Positions 830-21,357 are shown, counted from the stretch's first letter. The stretch: DNA of 64,000 nucleotides from Nitrospiraceae bacterium (GCA_050246315.1 JBFWWG010000010.1:32001-96000), one strand, 5' to 3'. Notes: generated by a model not told the origin, from the letters alone. Numbers and translations: made by a program.

Positions 830-2008
830 GTGAGCGCGCTCGATCCCCTCTTCGAGCCAGACTTGTTCCGACTTGGCGCAAAGCACTTACTCAGGCAGTG
901 CCACGTCATCGAGTCCGCCTGTGCGCCCGAAGTCGTATATCAAGGACGCCCCCTCATCCTCATGGCGTCCAATGACTACCTCGGCCTGGCCAACCATCCT
1001 GCTGTCAAGGAGGCAGCGGCTCAGGCTATTCGGCACTATGGGGTTGGTGCCGGAGCCGCACGCCTGATATCGGGAACACAATCGCCGCACTATGACTTGG
1101 AATCCGCCTTGGCAAAATGGAAGGACGCTGAGGCTGCACTTTGTTTCAGTTCCGGCTATTTAGCGAACCTCGGCCTTATTTCAAGTCTGGCCGGTCCCCA
1201 AGACCTCATCCTGGCCGACCGCCTCTGTCACGCAAGCCTGATCGACGGCTGCCGCCTTGCCCGCTCACGGCTGCGCGTGTTCCACCACGCCGATATCGGC
1301 CATCTGGAACAGCTGCTCAAGAAGCGCCCCACCGTTCGCCGGACGCTCATCGTCACTGATGGCCTGTTCAGCATGGATGGAGATCTAGCGCCCCTCTCGG
1401 ATCTAGCCCGACTCGCCAATCAGTATGACTGTCTTCTAATCGTGGACGATGCGCACGGCACCGGCGTGATGGGCGCGCATGGGCGAGGGTCATTGGAAGC
1501 CTGCGGTGTCGAGGAAACCGTTCCCTTTCACATGGGAACCCTTGGGAAGGCACTCGGAACAAGCGGCGCCTACATCGTCGGCTCCGAAACCTTCGTCCGA
1601 TTTCTTCTGAATCGCGCTCGGACCTTCCTGTTCACCACGGCCCCTCCCGCCGCCATGGCGGCGGCCACGACCGCCGCACTCAAGGTGCTCCAACAAGAGC
1701 CAACCCGTCGCGACCGATTATGGGCGAATCGCGACAGGCTGTTCGAAGGTCTCACCAGATTGGGCCTCTCTCTGACGCCCACCGCCAGTCCAATACTTCC
1801 GGTTATCGTCGGGGATGAAGCACGCGCGCTGGAGATGGCCCAGGCCCTGCTGGACCGGGGGATTTATGCGCCGGCTGTCCGCCCCCCGACCGTTCCTCAG
1901 GGTAGCAGCCGAATCAGACTGACGGTGACAGCCGACCACACCCGGGAGCATCTGGACCGTGTGCTGCACGCGTTTCAAAACATTCTCCTATCGCATCCGC
2001 TGCCGTAG
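830..2008 (+). CDS. bioF: 8-amino-7-oxononanoate synthase
   Basis: ASNDYLGLA, HASLIDG, DGLFSMDGD, DDAHG, TLGKALG (PLP Lys), RPPTVP; start GTG 830 is an estimate. Confidence 0.93.
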   Translation: MSALDPLFEPDLFRLGAKHLLRQCHVIESACAPEVVYQGRPLILMASNDYLGLANHPAVKEAAAQAIRHYGVGAGAARLISGTQSPHYDLESALAKWKDAEAALCFSSGYLANLGLISSLAGPQDLILADRLCHASLIDGCRLARSRLRVFHHADIGHLEQLLKKRPTVRRTLIVTDGLFSMDGDLAPLSDLARLANQYDCLLIVDDAHGTGVMGAHGRGSLEACGVEETVPFHMGTLGKALGTSGAYIVGSETFVRFLLNRARTFLFTTAPPAAMAAATTAALKVLQQEPTRRDRLWANRDRLFEGLTRLGLSLTPTASPILPVIVGDEARALEMAQALLDRGIYAPAVRPPTVPQGSSRIRLTVTADHTREHLDRVLHAFQNILLSHPLP

Positions 2009-2214
2009 CCCACAGTTTTCATGAACGCTTCCGTTGCAGTCGCGGTCAGTAAGGCAAGACTCGCTTGAGGTGTCTACTCTCGCGCAACATCAATTAACTG
2101 GCGCTCGACCTCGCAAGCGCTTGGGACGGCGAGTTCGGCCGCGGTAGTCACACGGCCAGACTCGCCACCCGGTCGGTCAACAGACCGGTTCAAGTCTGCC
2201 TTGTATCATCATCT

Positions 2215-2383
2215 TGGAGCATATAGATGCTTGCCGATTCTTCGATAGGACGTGATAGATCGATCTGCCTCGGGTCGTCCAAGACCGGAAGGGAGCCCGA
2301 TCGTCACGTCCTCATCCACCCAAGCCCGAACAGTTGTCTGAGCCCCGAGCCCGTATCTATCGCAAGGTTGGGCGTCCCATCTC
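2215..2383 (+). ncRNA. Putative IS110 bridge RNA (target-binding and donor-binding loops); ends approximate
   Basis: Stem AGGACGTGA 2247-2255/TCACGTCCT 2304-2312 plus GATCG/CGATC enclose TCTGCCT (2264-2270) and AGGGAG (2290-2295), which match the insertion site; second stem 2319-2326/2366-2372 encloses ACAGTTG and GCAAG, resembling the end junction. Confidence 0.75.
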
Positions 2384-2394
2384 AAGGAGGACCG

Positions 2395-3345
2395 ATGCCA
2401 GACATGCCGATCTTTGTCGAATATTGATGTTTCCAAGACGCAGTTGGACCTGGCCGTGCGCCCCTCGGACGCGCGGGACACGCTAGTCCATGAGCGGTGG
2501 GGATTGACACGGTGGTCACCCATTTCAGTCAGGTCCCGCCGATCTTGATGGTACTGGCAGCCACGGGTGGGCTGGAGCGACCCCTGGTACGGGCGCTGGT
2601 CGCAGCCAGGTTGCCGCTGATTGTCGCGAATCCGCGACAGGTCCGAGACTGTGCCAAAGCGACCGGGCAATTGGCCAAGATCCATCGCCTGGATGCCGGG
2701 GTGCTGGCACGCTTTGCCGAGGCCGGCCAGCCCGTGCGCCGGCCGTATCCCGAGGCCGCCACGGAGGCGTTGGCGGCGCTGCTGGCGCGCCGCCGCCAGG
2801 TGATCGAGATGCTCACCACCGAAAAGAACCGGCTGAGTCCTGCCCCCAAGCCGATGCGCCGCTGGATCCACGCGCCTGTGCCCTGGCTCACGACCAAGCT
2901 GGCGCTGCTCGATGAGGAGCTTGATCATGCCATCCAGCAGCGCCCAGTTTGGCGAGAGCAGGAGGATTTGCTGTGGAGTGCCCCCGGGATTGGTCCCGTG
3001 GTGAGCCGGACCTTGCTGACTCACCTGCCTGGCCTGGCGACCCTGACCGGCAAGCCGATGGCCGCCCTGGTGGCCGTGGCTACCTTGACTTGCGATAGCG
3101 GCACCTTGCGAGGTCCGCGCCGGGTGTGGGGTGGCCGGGCTCCCGTCCGGGCAGCCCTGTATAGGGCCACCTTGGTGGCGACGAAGTGTACTTCCGGTGA
3201 TTCGCAATTTCTATCGCAGGCTGCGGGCCACCGACAAGGCGCCCAAAGTGGCCCTCGTGGCGTGCATGCGAAAGTTCCTGAGATTCTCAACGCGATGATG
3301 AAGCATTGTACGCCGTGGCGCTCCGTGGTGCCTCAGGGGACTTGA
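2395..3345 (+). pseudogene. IS110 DEDD recombinase/transposase pseudogene
   Basis: RBS AAGGAGG, MPDMPIFV, frameshift, IDVSKTQLD; VLAATGG (catalytic E lost), NPRQVR, KIHRLDA (usually KTDxxDA), PGIGP, DSG, GGRAPVRAALY; further frameshifts near 2495 and 3190. Confidence 0.9.
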
Positions 3346-3673
3346 CATTCAAGGCAGTGGCTCCCTCCTCGCGGCTCCGCGGCGGTACCCATTGCTCTTT
3401 CGATGCCATGGGTTCAGCGCGACGAACCGTCATGAATATTGTGGGCTAGTCATTTTCAGTAAATCCGCGCTTTCCGTCCTCCTGCCCACTACAGCCTCGC
3501 AGTCCGTGGGCTTTGCCGTTCGTAAACCTTTGCATCTTGGTGCGATTTTCTTGCGTTCCGACCTCACTATGGCATGATGCGACCAGCCGGAAACGACGCC
3601 TTTCTTTCGACATGCGAGGCCGGACCGGCATCATCTATACCTAATCCGCATTTTTCCAGGGGGGCGACGCGCA

Positions 3674-4720
3674 ATGGATATTTCCCAACTGCTCAGTTTC
3701 GGCGTGAAGGAGGGCGCATCGGACTGCCATCTCAGCGCGGGCGAACCGCCAATGCTGCGGCTCCACGGCGACATGAAAAAAGTGGACATGCCTCCCATGA
3801 CACAGGAGCAGGTCCATTCACTTGTCTACGACATCATGAGCGACGCCCAAAGAAAGAACTTTGAAGAGAATCTGGAATGTGATTTCTCTTTCGCGCTAGG
3901 TGATATCTCCCGATTCCGCGTGAATGTGTTTCTTCAGAACCGTGGATTAGCGGCGGTGTTTCGAACCATTCCGACGGAGATACTTCCACTGGAGAAATTA
4001 GGGATGCCCCCGATCGTCCGCCAGCTCTGCGACCGTGAAAAGGGCCTCATTCTCGTGACCGGACCAACTGGATCGGGCAAGTCCACCACGCTGGCCGGGA
4101 TGATCGACTATCTGAATAATTTGTACGAAGGGCACGTCATTACCATCGAAGATCCGATCGAGTTTGTGCACAAGTCGAAGAAATGTCTCGTCAACCAGCG
4201 AGAACTCGGCGTGCACACCAAGTCCTTTGCCAACGCGCTCCGATCCGCACTGCGGGAAGATCCTGATATCGTCCTGGTCGGTGAAATGCGAGATCTCGAA
4301 ACCATTCAATTGGCGCTCACCGCGGCGGAAACAGGCCACCTGGTCTTCGCCACCCTGCATACGTCCAGTGCGCCAAAGACGGTGGATCGGATCATCGACG
4401 CCTTTCCGCCCAATCAGCAGGCACAGGTACGAACCCAGCTTGCCGAAGCCCTCGAGGCGGTGCTGACGCAGACCCTGGTCAAGAAGAAGGCAGGAGGACG
4501 CGCCGCCGCCGTGGAGATTTTGGTCGCCACCACCGCCATCCGCAATCTCATCCGAGAGCAGAAGCTCCACCAAATCCCCGGCCTGATGCAGGCCAGTCAG
4601 AAGGAAGGGATGCAGACCATGGACATGGCACTGCTCGATCTGGCCACGCGGGGCATGATTACCAAAGCTGAGGCCCAATCGCGCAGCATGAACCCGAATC
4701 TATTCGCCAACGCCGTGTAG
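3674..4720 (+). CDS. pilT: Type IV pilus retraction ATPase PilT
   Basis: GPTGSGKSTT, TIEDPIE, LREDPD, GEMRD, TLHT, AIRNLIRE. Confidence 0.96.
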   Translation: MDISQLLSFGVKEGASDCHLSAGEPPMLRLHGDMKKVDMPPMTQEQVHSLVYDIMSDAQRKNFEENLECDFSFALGDISRFRVNVFLQNRGLAAVFRTIPTEILPLEKLGMPPIVRQLCDREKGLILVTGPTGSGKSTTLAGMIDYLNNLYEGHVITIEDPIEFVHKSKKCLVNQRELGVHTKSFANALRSALREDPDIVLVGEMRDLETIQLALTAAETGHLVFATLHTSSAPKTVDRIIDAFPPNQQAQVRTQLAEALEAVLTQTLVKKKAGGRAAAVEILVATTAIRNLIREQKLHQIPGLMQASQKEGMQTMDMALLDLATRGMITKAEAQSRSMNPNLFANAV

Positions 4721-4778: not shown

Positions 4779-5954
4779 ATGGAAATTCGCGAGTTGCTCA
4801 AGATCATGGTCGACCGGGAAGGATCGGATCTGTACCTCACCGTAGATGCACCGCCCATCTACCGCATCCATGGCATAACACACCCCACGGCGGACCCGCC
4901 CTTCACCAACGAACAACTGGAGGCCCTCTCGCTGGCGTTGATGCGAGGACCGCAGCGGAGCGAGTTCGAAGAAAAGATGGAGATGAATCTGGCCTTGTAC
5001 TACAAAGACCTGGGTCGGTTTCGCGTGAACGTCTTTCGCCAGCGGGGCAACGTCGGCCTCGTGTTCCGACACATCAAAGCCGAGATTCAGAGTGTGGAAC
5101 AGCTCGGACTGCCTCCGATCATCAAGGACCTCGCCATGACCAAGCGCGGTCTCATCCTCGTAGTCGGTGCCACGGGGTCCGGGAAATCGACCACCTTGGC
5201 GGCCATGATCGACCACCGCAACGCGGTTTCGCCCGGACACATCATCTCGGTCGAGGATCCGATCGAATTCGTGCATCCACACAAGAAATGCCTTATCACG
5301 CAACGTGAAGTCGGCTTCGACACTCTGTCTTTCCACAACGCGCTCAAGAACACCCTGCGACAGGCGCCCGATGTGATCCTCATCGGCGAGATCCGGGACA
5401 CGGAAACCATGGAGGCGGCCATCACATTCGCGGAAACCGGCCATCTCTGCCTGGGGACACTCCACTCCAACAACGCCAACCAGGCTATCGAGCGCATCAT
5501 GAATTTCTTTCCGGTCGAGCGGCATCAGCAGATCTACCTGCAATTGTCACTGAATCTGCGCGCCATTCTATCCCAACGACTCGTCCCCTCCTTGGACGGA
5601 CGGCGGGCGCCAGCGATCGAAATCTTGCTGGATACTCCTCGCATCAAGGACCTGATCAAGAAGTCCGAGATCGACACGCTAAAGGAAGCGATGGAACAGG
5701 GCGTCGAGGAAGGATGTCAGACTTTCGACTACGTCTTATTTACTCTGTACAAGGAAGGAAAGATCAGCCTGGAGCAGGCCTTGATCAACGCCGACAGCGC
5801 AAACAACCTCCGCCTCAAGATCAAGCTGGAGGGTGTACGGACGGGCGATGAACAGCTGTCGAAACTATTGGAAGCAGACCATAAGGACAAGAGCCGCGAC
5901 CGAAAACCGACCTTCCAAATTGTCGGCAACGACCCGACCCTCCGGAGGAAGTAA
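4779..5954 (+). CDS. pilU: PilT/PilU family retraction ATPase (PilU-like)
   Basis: GATGSGKSTT, LRQAPDVILIGEIRD, TLHSNNANQA; tandem with pilT, lacks AIRNLIRE. Confidence 0.88.
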   Translation: MEIRELLKIMVDREGSDLYLTVDAPPIYRIHGITHPTADPPFTNEQLEALSLALMRGPQRSEFEEKMEMNLALYYKDLGRFRVNVFRQRGNVGLVFRHIKAEIQSVEQLGLPPIIKDLAMTKRGLILVVGATGSGKSTTLAAMIDHRNAVSPGHIISVEDPIEFVHPHKKCLITQREVGFDTLSFHNALKNTLRQAPDVILIGEIRDTETMEAAITFAETGHLCLGTLHSNNANQAIERIMNFFPVERHQQIYLQLSLNLRAILSQRLVPSLDGRRAPAIEILLDTPRIKDLIKKSEIDTLKEAMEQGVEEGCQTFDYVLFTLYKEGKISLEQALINADSANNLRLKIKLEGVRTGDEQLSKLLEADHKDKSRDRKPTFQIVGNDPTLRRK

Positions 5955-20330: not shown

Positions 20331-21357
20331 TCAATTGGCGACTTCGTCGATGATTGTGGATCGGATGAGTGCTCTCCACTGCTCGGTGGCGGACTCCTTG
20401 GTCAAGGAGCCCGTGGTGGCGGTCACCCTCGTGACCTGTTCGGTTTCTCAATCGTTGCGGACGGGCACGCCGAGGACCAACGACCTGATATTGGCCCGGT
20501 TGATCACGCGCGTGGCATCGATGCTGTCCATGCAAGGCATACTCACATCCATGACAACCACATCCGGCGACAGGCTGTGCGCCAGTTCGATCGCTTCGAT
20601 GCCGTTGCCGGCTTCGCTGAAGATGCAGACATCCTCGTACCCTTCTAACCCGCATTATTCATGACCGCTGCTACTGCAACCGCCGATACGCCGCTGCGAC
20701 AGGCTTGGCTGCCGGTCTCCCGCACCCAAGCGGGCAGGCTCGCCGCTCGGTCGGTCGACATACGGTTTCAAGTATGCCTTCCTTCCTCGCGGCCCCGCGT
20801 GCCCGTCTCGCGTAGCGTCTTGGCGGTTTCGTCACGAACCGTCATGAATAATGCGGGCTAACCTGCTCCGCAGCCCATGCCACACCATCGCATGGTCATC
20901 GACCAGCGGGACGCGAATCACCTTGCTCTTGTAGGAACCGCGAGGTACGGGGCCCTGGTGAAGCGTCTCATGAGACGCCGAAGGGTGAGCCGATTTCGCG
21001 ACCGGCATCCTCTGTTCTTGGGACACCACAGTGGCCGCGTGTTCGGAGTGACACACGTCACGCCCCTTCCCTACCCAGTATTGGAATCGATCACCGACGT
21101 GCCACCCATGCCCGTCATCCACTCGCCAATACTGCAGGGTCCGAACCGTAACGGCATCGTCCCGTAGATAGCCCGCTCAGTGAACTCTTCCACCCGTCCC
21201 TGGTCGATCTCGGCGATATACAACCGTTGTTGCGATCGCGTCAACTCCTCGGTCCTCTCCGTGACCCGAATTTCCAACCCTTCCGTCAATTGCTGCAATG
21301 ATGCTTCGGCCCGTTTCCGCTCGGTGATGCACGCATCATGACCATTCAGCAGCGGCG
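20331..21357 (-). pseudogene. Decayed NarX-like sensor kinase/receiver hybrid, interrupted by a MITE
   Basis: Fragments ITERKRAE (PAS end), FGPCSIGEWMTGMGG (HATPase remnant), receiver VDDHAMV...GLRSRL|EGYEDV...PDVVVMDVSMP; internal stops and deletions. Confidence 0.8.
20649..20857. mobile_element. IS1380-like MITE, copy 2 (209 bp)
   Basis: Perfect 17-bp TIR CCCGCATTATTCATGAC/GTCATGAATAATGCGGG; TSD CTAA at 20645-20648 and 20858-20861; excision restores the reading frame. Family assignment is from TIR resemblance. Confidence 0.9.

Follow-up and report, generated by a model that had tools for sequence, protein, structure and literature searches.

The insertion sequence at positions 2202-3362 of the window, by which we mean the whole 64,000-nucleotide stretch of a Nitrospiraceae bacterium genome analyzed here, is best read as a decayed IS110-group element that stands near IS621, ISCro4, and ISMno7 and whose left end encodes a bridge RNA, and we give this reading a probability of roughly 0.9. 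The bridge RNA layout of the IS110 group was defined by Durrant et al. 2024 (PMC11208160), who describe elements with a long left end, a short right end, a CT core, and REP-like targets; the left guide is the top strand of the left target plus the core, and the right guide complements the core plus the right target. An earlier note on this DNA had proposed that the left end encodes such an RNA, with target guides matching the element's own insertion site, and had named covariation of the stems and of guides with targets as ways to check it. The proposal is supported by both kinds of covariation and by homology to IS621. Transcription of the RNA, its binding by the recombinase, and RNA-guided strand exchange would be expected by analogy with published work on IS621.

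The element lies on the plus strand, is 1161 bp long, starts with TGTATC, and ends in ...GCAGTGG-CT. The core CT is present at both junctions (2200-2201 and 3361-3362), and there is no target-site duplication, as expected of an IS110-type insertion. To place the boundaries, the two flanks (2153-2201 and 3363-3449) were joined by script and compared with the same genome. In 39 places, the joined sequence aligns through the junction with a dispersed ~135-bp repeat that is uninterrupted there, which delimits the element as 2202-3362, and each flank separately matches many other sites, with dozens of repeat copies among them. Relatives back the same boundaries, being 1144-1277 bp long save for one truncated copy of 948 bp. 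The non-coding left end is long (193 nt, 2202-2394), and the right end is short, reaching 17 nt past the stop codon. The features of the locus are collected in Table 1.

Table 1. Features of the insertion sequence, its bridge RNA, and the interrupted host repeat, in window coordinates.
Feature	Position	Strand	Sequence or detail	Basis
Left half of interrupted dispersed repeat	2153..2201	+	contains hairpin, left target, and core CT 2200-2201	
-10-like hexamer	2204..2209	+	TATCAT	sequence; putative promoter role after Durrant et al.
Bridge RNA core, both binding loops and stems	2243..2377	+		covariance model R1
Target-binding loop and stems	2247..2312	+		sequence, MFE fold, covariation
Outer stem, 9 bp	2247-2255 / 2304-2312	+	AGGACGTGA / TCACGTCCT	sequence
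Inner stem, 5 bp	2258-2262 / 2298-2302	+	GATCG / CGATC	sequence
Left target guide	2264..2270	+	TCTGCCT	equals top strand of left flank plus core (2195-2201)
Hairpin between guide strands	2273-2276 / 2283-2286	+	GGTC / GACC	sequence
Right target guide	2287..2295	+	GGAAGGGAG	reverse complement of CT+CCCTTCC
Donor-binding loop	2324..2373	+	outer stem 2324-2328 / 2369-2373	
Left donor guide	2330-2337	+	ACAGTTGT; relatives ACAGTTGC	
Inner donor-loop hairpin	2340-2343 / 2349-2352	+	A-C mismatch at 2341; relatives GGGC/GCCC	
Right donor guide region	2353-2366	+	ends ...GCAAG	
Ribosome-binding site and start codon	2385-2390; 2395-2397	+	AGGAGG; ATG	position conserved in relatives
Recombinase pseudogene	2395..3345	+	DEDD RuvC-like and Tnp domains	Pfam, frame comparison
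Right end	3342..3362	+	TTGACA 3342-3347, left donor GCAGTGG 3354-3360, core CT 3361-3362	
Right half of interrupted dispersed repeat	3363..3449	+	right target starts CCCTCC	

The uninterrupted repeat copies read ...TTTCAAGT(A/C)TGC-CT-CCCTTCCTCGCGG..., and the window's own right flank reads CCCT-CC, one base less; the joined flanks are accordingly 1 base shorter than the uninterrupted copies, 4-7 nt to the right of the core. Just before the element the repeat forms a hairpin (CAGAC 2181-2185 / GTCTG 2194-2198) that ends 3 nt from it and whose 3' arm is the left target. This hairpin carries a compensatory pair, as copies have either CATAC/GTATG or CAGAC/GTCTG. The repeat is intergenic, has at least 39 copies in the genome, combines a variable middle with a conserved end (GTCATGAATAATGTGGGCTA), and is the natural landing site of both insertion sequence copies in this genome. 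It gave no Rfam match above the gathering score in a scan of 1900-3700, which takes in both flanking halves of the interrupted copy. The left flank has a tRNA-like look, and a tRNA scan found no tRNA there.

Within the left end, the stems, the 7-mer, the 6-mer, and the loop words that the earlier note had picked out are all present. In the first loop, the window copy's match to its target covers 7 nt on the left side; on the right it covers 6 nt, or 9 nt when the repeat consensus is used. The earlier note had taken the right guide to be AGGGAG (2290-2295), on the 3' strand of the target loop, as the reverse complement of CTCCCT at 3361-3366; its position and complementarity hold, but the guide is longer than claimed and spans 2287-2295. 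The full guide has as its reverse complement CTCCCTTCC, the form found most often where the repeat is uninterrupted, and it fits the repeat consensus at 9/9 positions. With its own flank (CTCCCT-CC) it matches over 6 contiguous bases only, because this flank differs from the repeat consensus by one base. The minimum free energy fold of 2200-2395 reproduces the stems of the first loop (z = -1.96; 8/200 shuffles fold as well).

The second loop has ACAGTTG at 2330-2336 and GCAAG at 2362-2366, words that the earlier note had described as near-matches to the circular junction of the element. The words are there, and we read their imperfection as decay of the window copy. The right end of relatives reads TTGACA...ACAGTTGCT; ACAGTTGCT is present in all 16 from other genomes in which this end was found, and the loop of the same 16 reads ACAGTTGC, with the exceptions of L031 (ACAGGTGC) and L054 (ACAGTTGA). 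ISMno7 has ACAGCCGCT at both the right end and the donor loop, which means that donor arm and guide covary. The window copy has diverged on both sides, with GCAGTGG-CT at its right end where relatives have ACAGTTG-CT, and with ACAGTTGT in its loop; since the relatives match and this copy has changed at both end and loop, its near-matches are best taken as the remains of a perfect match. About 5/9 positions of its left donor match the guide, and GCAAG needs a G-T pair. The inner donor stem, GGGC/GCCC in 27/28 sequences, is broken here by the A-C mismatch at 2341. On the other strand of the loop, GCAAG (GCAAG or ACAAG in relatives) is complementary to CT-TG(T) at the element start; for IS621, pairing of the right donor guide is described as discontiguous (Durrant et al., PMC11208160).

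Decay is equally visible in the recombinase gene. Comparison with six relatives places four single-base indels in the coding region, near 2420, 2493, 3191, and 3281. Translation from ATG 2395 ends after ten codons, the IDVSK motif of the N-terminus is in a second frame, the main part of the coding region (2497-3345) uses a third, and one segment close to the C-terminus is shifted once more; the stop codon TGA (3343-3345) is overlapped by TTGACA. The window open reading frame 2497-3342 matches PF01548 (E 6.6e-11) and PF02371 (E 1.5e-07), and the corresponding values for an intact relative are 4.6e-22 and 3.8e-19. Over residues 2-308 of 316, this intact relative is homologous to the transposases of both IS621 (8wt6_A, E 5.6e-42) and ISCro4 (9t56_A, E 4.1e-42). 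An open frame of at least 315 aa is kept in 15/18 elements with both ends found, and the three that lack it are the window copy, a second copy in the same genome, and the truncated 948-bp element. PF01548 has two matches only in this genome, namely the window copy and the second copy, both of them frameshifted, and this search found no intact recombinase of the family there. The window copy thus does not have the intact recombinase frame of an active insertion sequence and, judged from its sequence, is dead, given its four indels, degenerate right end, and degenerate donor loop. The earlier note did not state the fossil nature of this copy.

The second copy (G000:C10:117975-119118, minus strand, in L002) lies ~83 kb downstream of the window copy on the same contig, outside the window, and sits in another copy of the repeat. 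It is 1144 bp long, has one single-base deletion, and is 68% identical to the window copy by BLAST, or 63.7% over a full-length alignment. On another contig, a fragment of 237 bp (G000:C3:336212-336448, L003) corresponds, at 72% identity, to the right end plus the 3' portion of the recombinase gene, and is probably a third, truncated remnant.

At the level of sequence, joining the ends in a circle sets TTGACA (3342-3347) in front of TATCAT (2204-2209) with 17 nt between them, and the register of TTGACA ... TATCTT is preserved in relatives. According to Durrant et al. (PMC11208160), a sigma-70 promoter is restored when excision joins the ends, and an RNA of ~177 nt starts from it; a rebuilt promoter is likewise predicted here, with an activity that would parallel that of IS621. 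In the integrated state the two promoter boxes are 1.1 kb apart, with the -35 box at the element's other end. An active ancestor would have excised as a circle whose joined ends made this promoter by setting TTGACA 17 nt from TATCAT, and the RNA from it would have bound the recombinase. The first internal loop would have paired with the host site and the second, likewise, with the junction of the element's ends, which in the family reads ACAGTTG-CT-TGTAT, and recombination at the CT core would have put the element into one copy of the ~135-bp repeat, just past its hairpin. The copy would later have decayed, with its recombinase frameshifted four times and its donor end and guide left matching poorly.

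It could be argued that the whole element, or failing that its bridge RNA, has stayed functional, whether through mobilization in trans or because the host has retained a small RNA directed at the repeat family. In the window copy, the target-binding loop is indeed intact together with its stems, and the 12-nt word made of left guide and right guide (TCTGCCTCCCTT) has five exact matches in the genome, at least four of which fall within uninterrupted repeat copies. Contigs from RNA libraries also cover the locus (four libraries from two studies, at a low depth of 2.7-19.7): one of 1531 nt corresponds to 2026-3556, and shorter ones to 2099-2353, 2141-2305, and 2346-3095, of which those over 2099-2353 and 2141-2305 might be cited in favor of a surviving RNA. 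However, such contigs give no ends, strand, or level, reveal no discrete transcript, and may be DNA or read-through, so that we count them neither for nor against expression. Persistent function is in addition opposed by the frameshifts in both recombinase copies, with no third PF01548 match in the genome, by the poor fit of donor end to guide and the mismatched inner donor stem, and by the distance of the integrated -35 box, and we regard it as very unlikely.

The case for a bridge RNA in a decayed element rests to a large extent on its relatives. DNA-level matches to the left end occur in 30/200 other genomes of the same family and are spread over 12/39 genera, the window's own genus counted, and 8/10 protein-level relatives come from Nitrospira, Nitrospiraceae, or Nitrospirales assemblies. 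Alignment A1 comprises 28/31 available RNA regions; L044 was dropped for an unrecognizable left boundary, L030 since its contig ends inside the RNA, and L026 since its contig ends at 124 nt. The covariance model R1, built from A1, has a single match in the window, at 2243-2377 (109.8 bits, E 2.5e-23). Among the 28 aligned RNAs, 91.6% of the cells of the two-loop structure pair, and two-sided, compensatory changes are found in 10/28 pairs, in 40 cells. The observed pairing and compensation are reached by 0/500 shuffles, and when the 3' partners are slid as a control, pairing falls to 28.7-45.7%. Covariation is mainly located in the stems of the target loop, where helix 1 is 95.3% paired and 9/13 of its pairs have changed on both sides; the donor-loop stems are conserved and vary little, which makes them uninformative rather than contradictory. 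RNAalifold recovers the same stems unaided. The stem covariation that the earlier note had called for is therefore present. The Rfam 15 scan of 1900-3700 (E up to 10) returned no bridge RNA family. Its six matches were all far below gathering and were rejected as chance, the best having E values of 0.41-1.1; sX15, on the minus strand at 2236-2364, scored 21.7 bits against a gathering score of 55 and was rejected on the same grounds.

These stems also bear on the idea that the matches between left end and flanks are signals at the DNA level, for instance subterminal repeats to which the recombinase binds, or copied remnants of the target, rather than an RNA guide. The left guide does repeat the flank sequence on one and the same strand, as a direct DNA repeat would. 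However, the loop stems covary in a manner that keeps base pairing, of which a DNA repeat has no need, the right guide is a reverse complement and not a repeat, and the same layout acts as RNA experimentally in IS621, whose recombinase is homologous. A DNA-level origin of the matches is, in our judgment, extremely improbable.

If the loops of a bridge RNA guide insertion, each element should fit its own flanks better than those of others, and on average this is the case. A left boundary was assignable in 30 elements, and in 17 both boundaries were, with 9 nt or more of flank on the right; L026 and L030 are included in the left-flank statistics. For 28 non-redundant elements, the longest run of the left guide identical to its own flank averages 5.68 nt, against 3.22 +/- 0.20 (maximum 4.14) in permuted pairings, and for 17 elements the contiguous match of the right guide beyond the invariant core averages 3.82 nt, against 0.96 +/- 0.36, with 0/10,000 permutations reaching the observed value on either side, figures that overstate independence because the relatives are kin and share guides and targets. 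Runs of the left guide are poor, only 2-4 nt, in 10/28 relatives. The guide/target covariation anticipated in the earlier note is hence found on both sides. It can also be followed within the genome itself: the second copy has left guide TATGCCT with flank GTATGC-CT and right guide end CCGAG with CT-CGG, and its guides differ from those of the window copy exactly where the two targets differ. Seven more loci outside the statistics, among which L055 repeats L029, have runs of 4-7 for the left guide and prefixes of 3-7 for the right one; for L062 and L064, the left boundary was not obtained in this further test. Chance resemblance, in which short words of a GC-rich leader happen to fit the flanks, can be dismissed as refuted by permutation and covariation, since the 7-mer and the 6-mer occur singly in 662/100,000 and 7,855/100,000 dinucleotide-preserving shuffles of the left end, but both words in order and 10-40 nt apart in only 8/100,000, and neither the family-wide permutations nor the 109.8-bit model match would be expected of it.

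Some relatives (L036, L045, L057, L058, and L060) sit at sites that match only one of the two guides, for example with a right-guide match of 7-8 and a left run of 3-4. Off-target insertion at half-matching sites is reportedly named in the title of a 2026 preprint.

The left guide has two registers within the family (alignment A1 columns 21-30, window 2263-2272). In the window copy's subgroup, its pairing extends over the two bases of the core (GCCT); for the majority of the other members, identity ends at the first core base, the next letter being A or G and not T, and members with this register have an additional base 3' of their right guide. Separately, 9/30 elements, the window copy included, sit 3-5 nt after a 5-bp hairpin, a count that is not independent because the elements are kin, compared with 691/20,000 (3.5%) of random CT sites having such a hairpin. 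All nine belong to the subgroup with left guide ...GCCT, and the 21 elements without a hairpin include all 20 outside that subgroup. ISPpu10 of Pseudomonas putida inserts into a conserved intergenic repeat with a stem-loop 5' of the RNA-matched target, and this stem-loop adds specificity (bioRxiv 10.64898/2026.03.19.712850). The hairpin before the target is a feature that ISPpu10 shares with the window copy's subgroup, in which a role in recognition would be by analogy. We tentatively raise the rather doubtful possibility that the family holds two guide registers, one combining RNA pairing with recognition of a target hairpin and the other without a hairpin; on such a reading, the hairpin subgroup may always land 3-5 nt after the hairpin of a host repeat. 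The role of the target hairpin is to be taken as a lead and not as a result, the logic having been reported so far only for ISPpu10. If true, a dead copy would preserve a natural, structure-gated bridge system in a distant phylum, and its intact target loop, closer to the repeat consensus than to its own site, would record the ancestral specificity.

Among known systems, IS621 of Escherichia coli (structures 8wt6-8wt9) is one of the closest to the window family. The two share a left end that is long and a right end that is short, a promoter, predicted in the window family, whose boxes come together when the ends are joined, and two internal loops. In these loops, the 5' strand has the top-strand sequence of the left target or donor plus the core, and the 3' strand complements the core plus the right target or donor. 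As in the window element, IS621 has a CT core without target duplication and a TGTAT start, inserts into a sequence like a repeated extragenic palindrome, and encodes a recombinase homologous to that of the intact relative. On the other hand, the right target guide of IS621 is 4 nt and that of the window family is longer, up to 7-9 nt, the donor left arm ACAGTTG of the family is unlike that of IS621, and the window copy is inactive. Right guides longer than IS621's are found in some orthologues (Durrant et al., PMC11208160). The bridge RNA of a relative gave no match by blastn against all complete E. coli genomes, and since blastn did not reach IS621, ISMno7 was taken as the named outgroup for RNA comparison. 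ISMno7 of Methylobacterium nodulans (ISfinder name, NC_011887.1) is the closest named element, with 54.4% protein identity to the intact relative. Its left end was found by R1 directly upstream of the annotated transposase (73.8 bits, E 3.7e-15), it has the same CT-TGTATC start, and its guides match its own flanks and ends. It differs in host phylum, in target, and in its donor arm, which is ACAGCCG rather than ACAGTTG, with a matching change in the loop.

The suggestion in the earlier note that the RNA is possibly undescribed in this lineage is weak. In its favor, a full-text literature search for Nitrospira and IS110, judged by titles and abstracts, returned nothing on these elements; against it, the model finds ISMno7, which Durrant et al. 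2024 (PMC11208160) list in the table for their recombinase tree. At least two rows of that table are labelled Nitrospirae, and the sequences of these two are not of the window element's family. The same authors count 5,511 target-RNA pairs and predict orthologous RNAs in the thousands. Given the negative search for Nitrospira and IS110, the lineage-specific description may be new, and the kind of RNA is not. Because the mechanism is established, orthologues are predicted in their thousands, and the window copy is inactive, no new question is opened. What the locus does add is a documented natural family from Nitrospiraceae, in which guides covary with targets and with donors, right guides are longer, and a target at a repeat hairpin occurs, and a demonstration that the target specificity of a bridge RNA can be correctly decoded from raw sequence alone. 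Its practical value is for annotation, where an IS110 pseudo-element can be marked, together with its RNA, within a family of host repeats, and the intact relatives could supply bridge recombinases.

The surroundings of the element can be described in part. Upstream, an aminotransferase-like open reading frame of 416 aa (758-2008) reads towards the element. Downstream, a frame of 348 aa (3674-4720) resembles a twitching-motility ATPase, and a second one of that likeness follows at 4779-5954, all three named from the look of their translations. An uninterrupted copy of the repeat also lies within the window, at 20731-20860.
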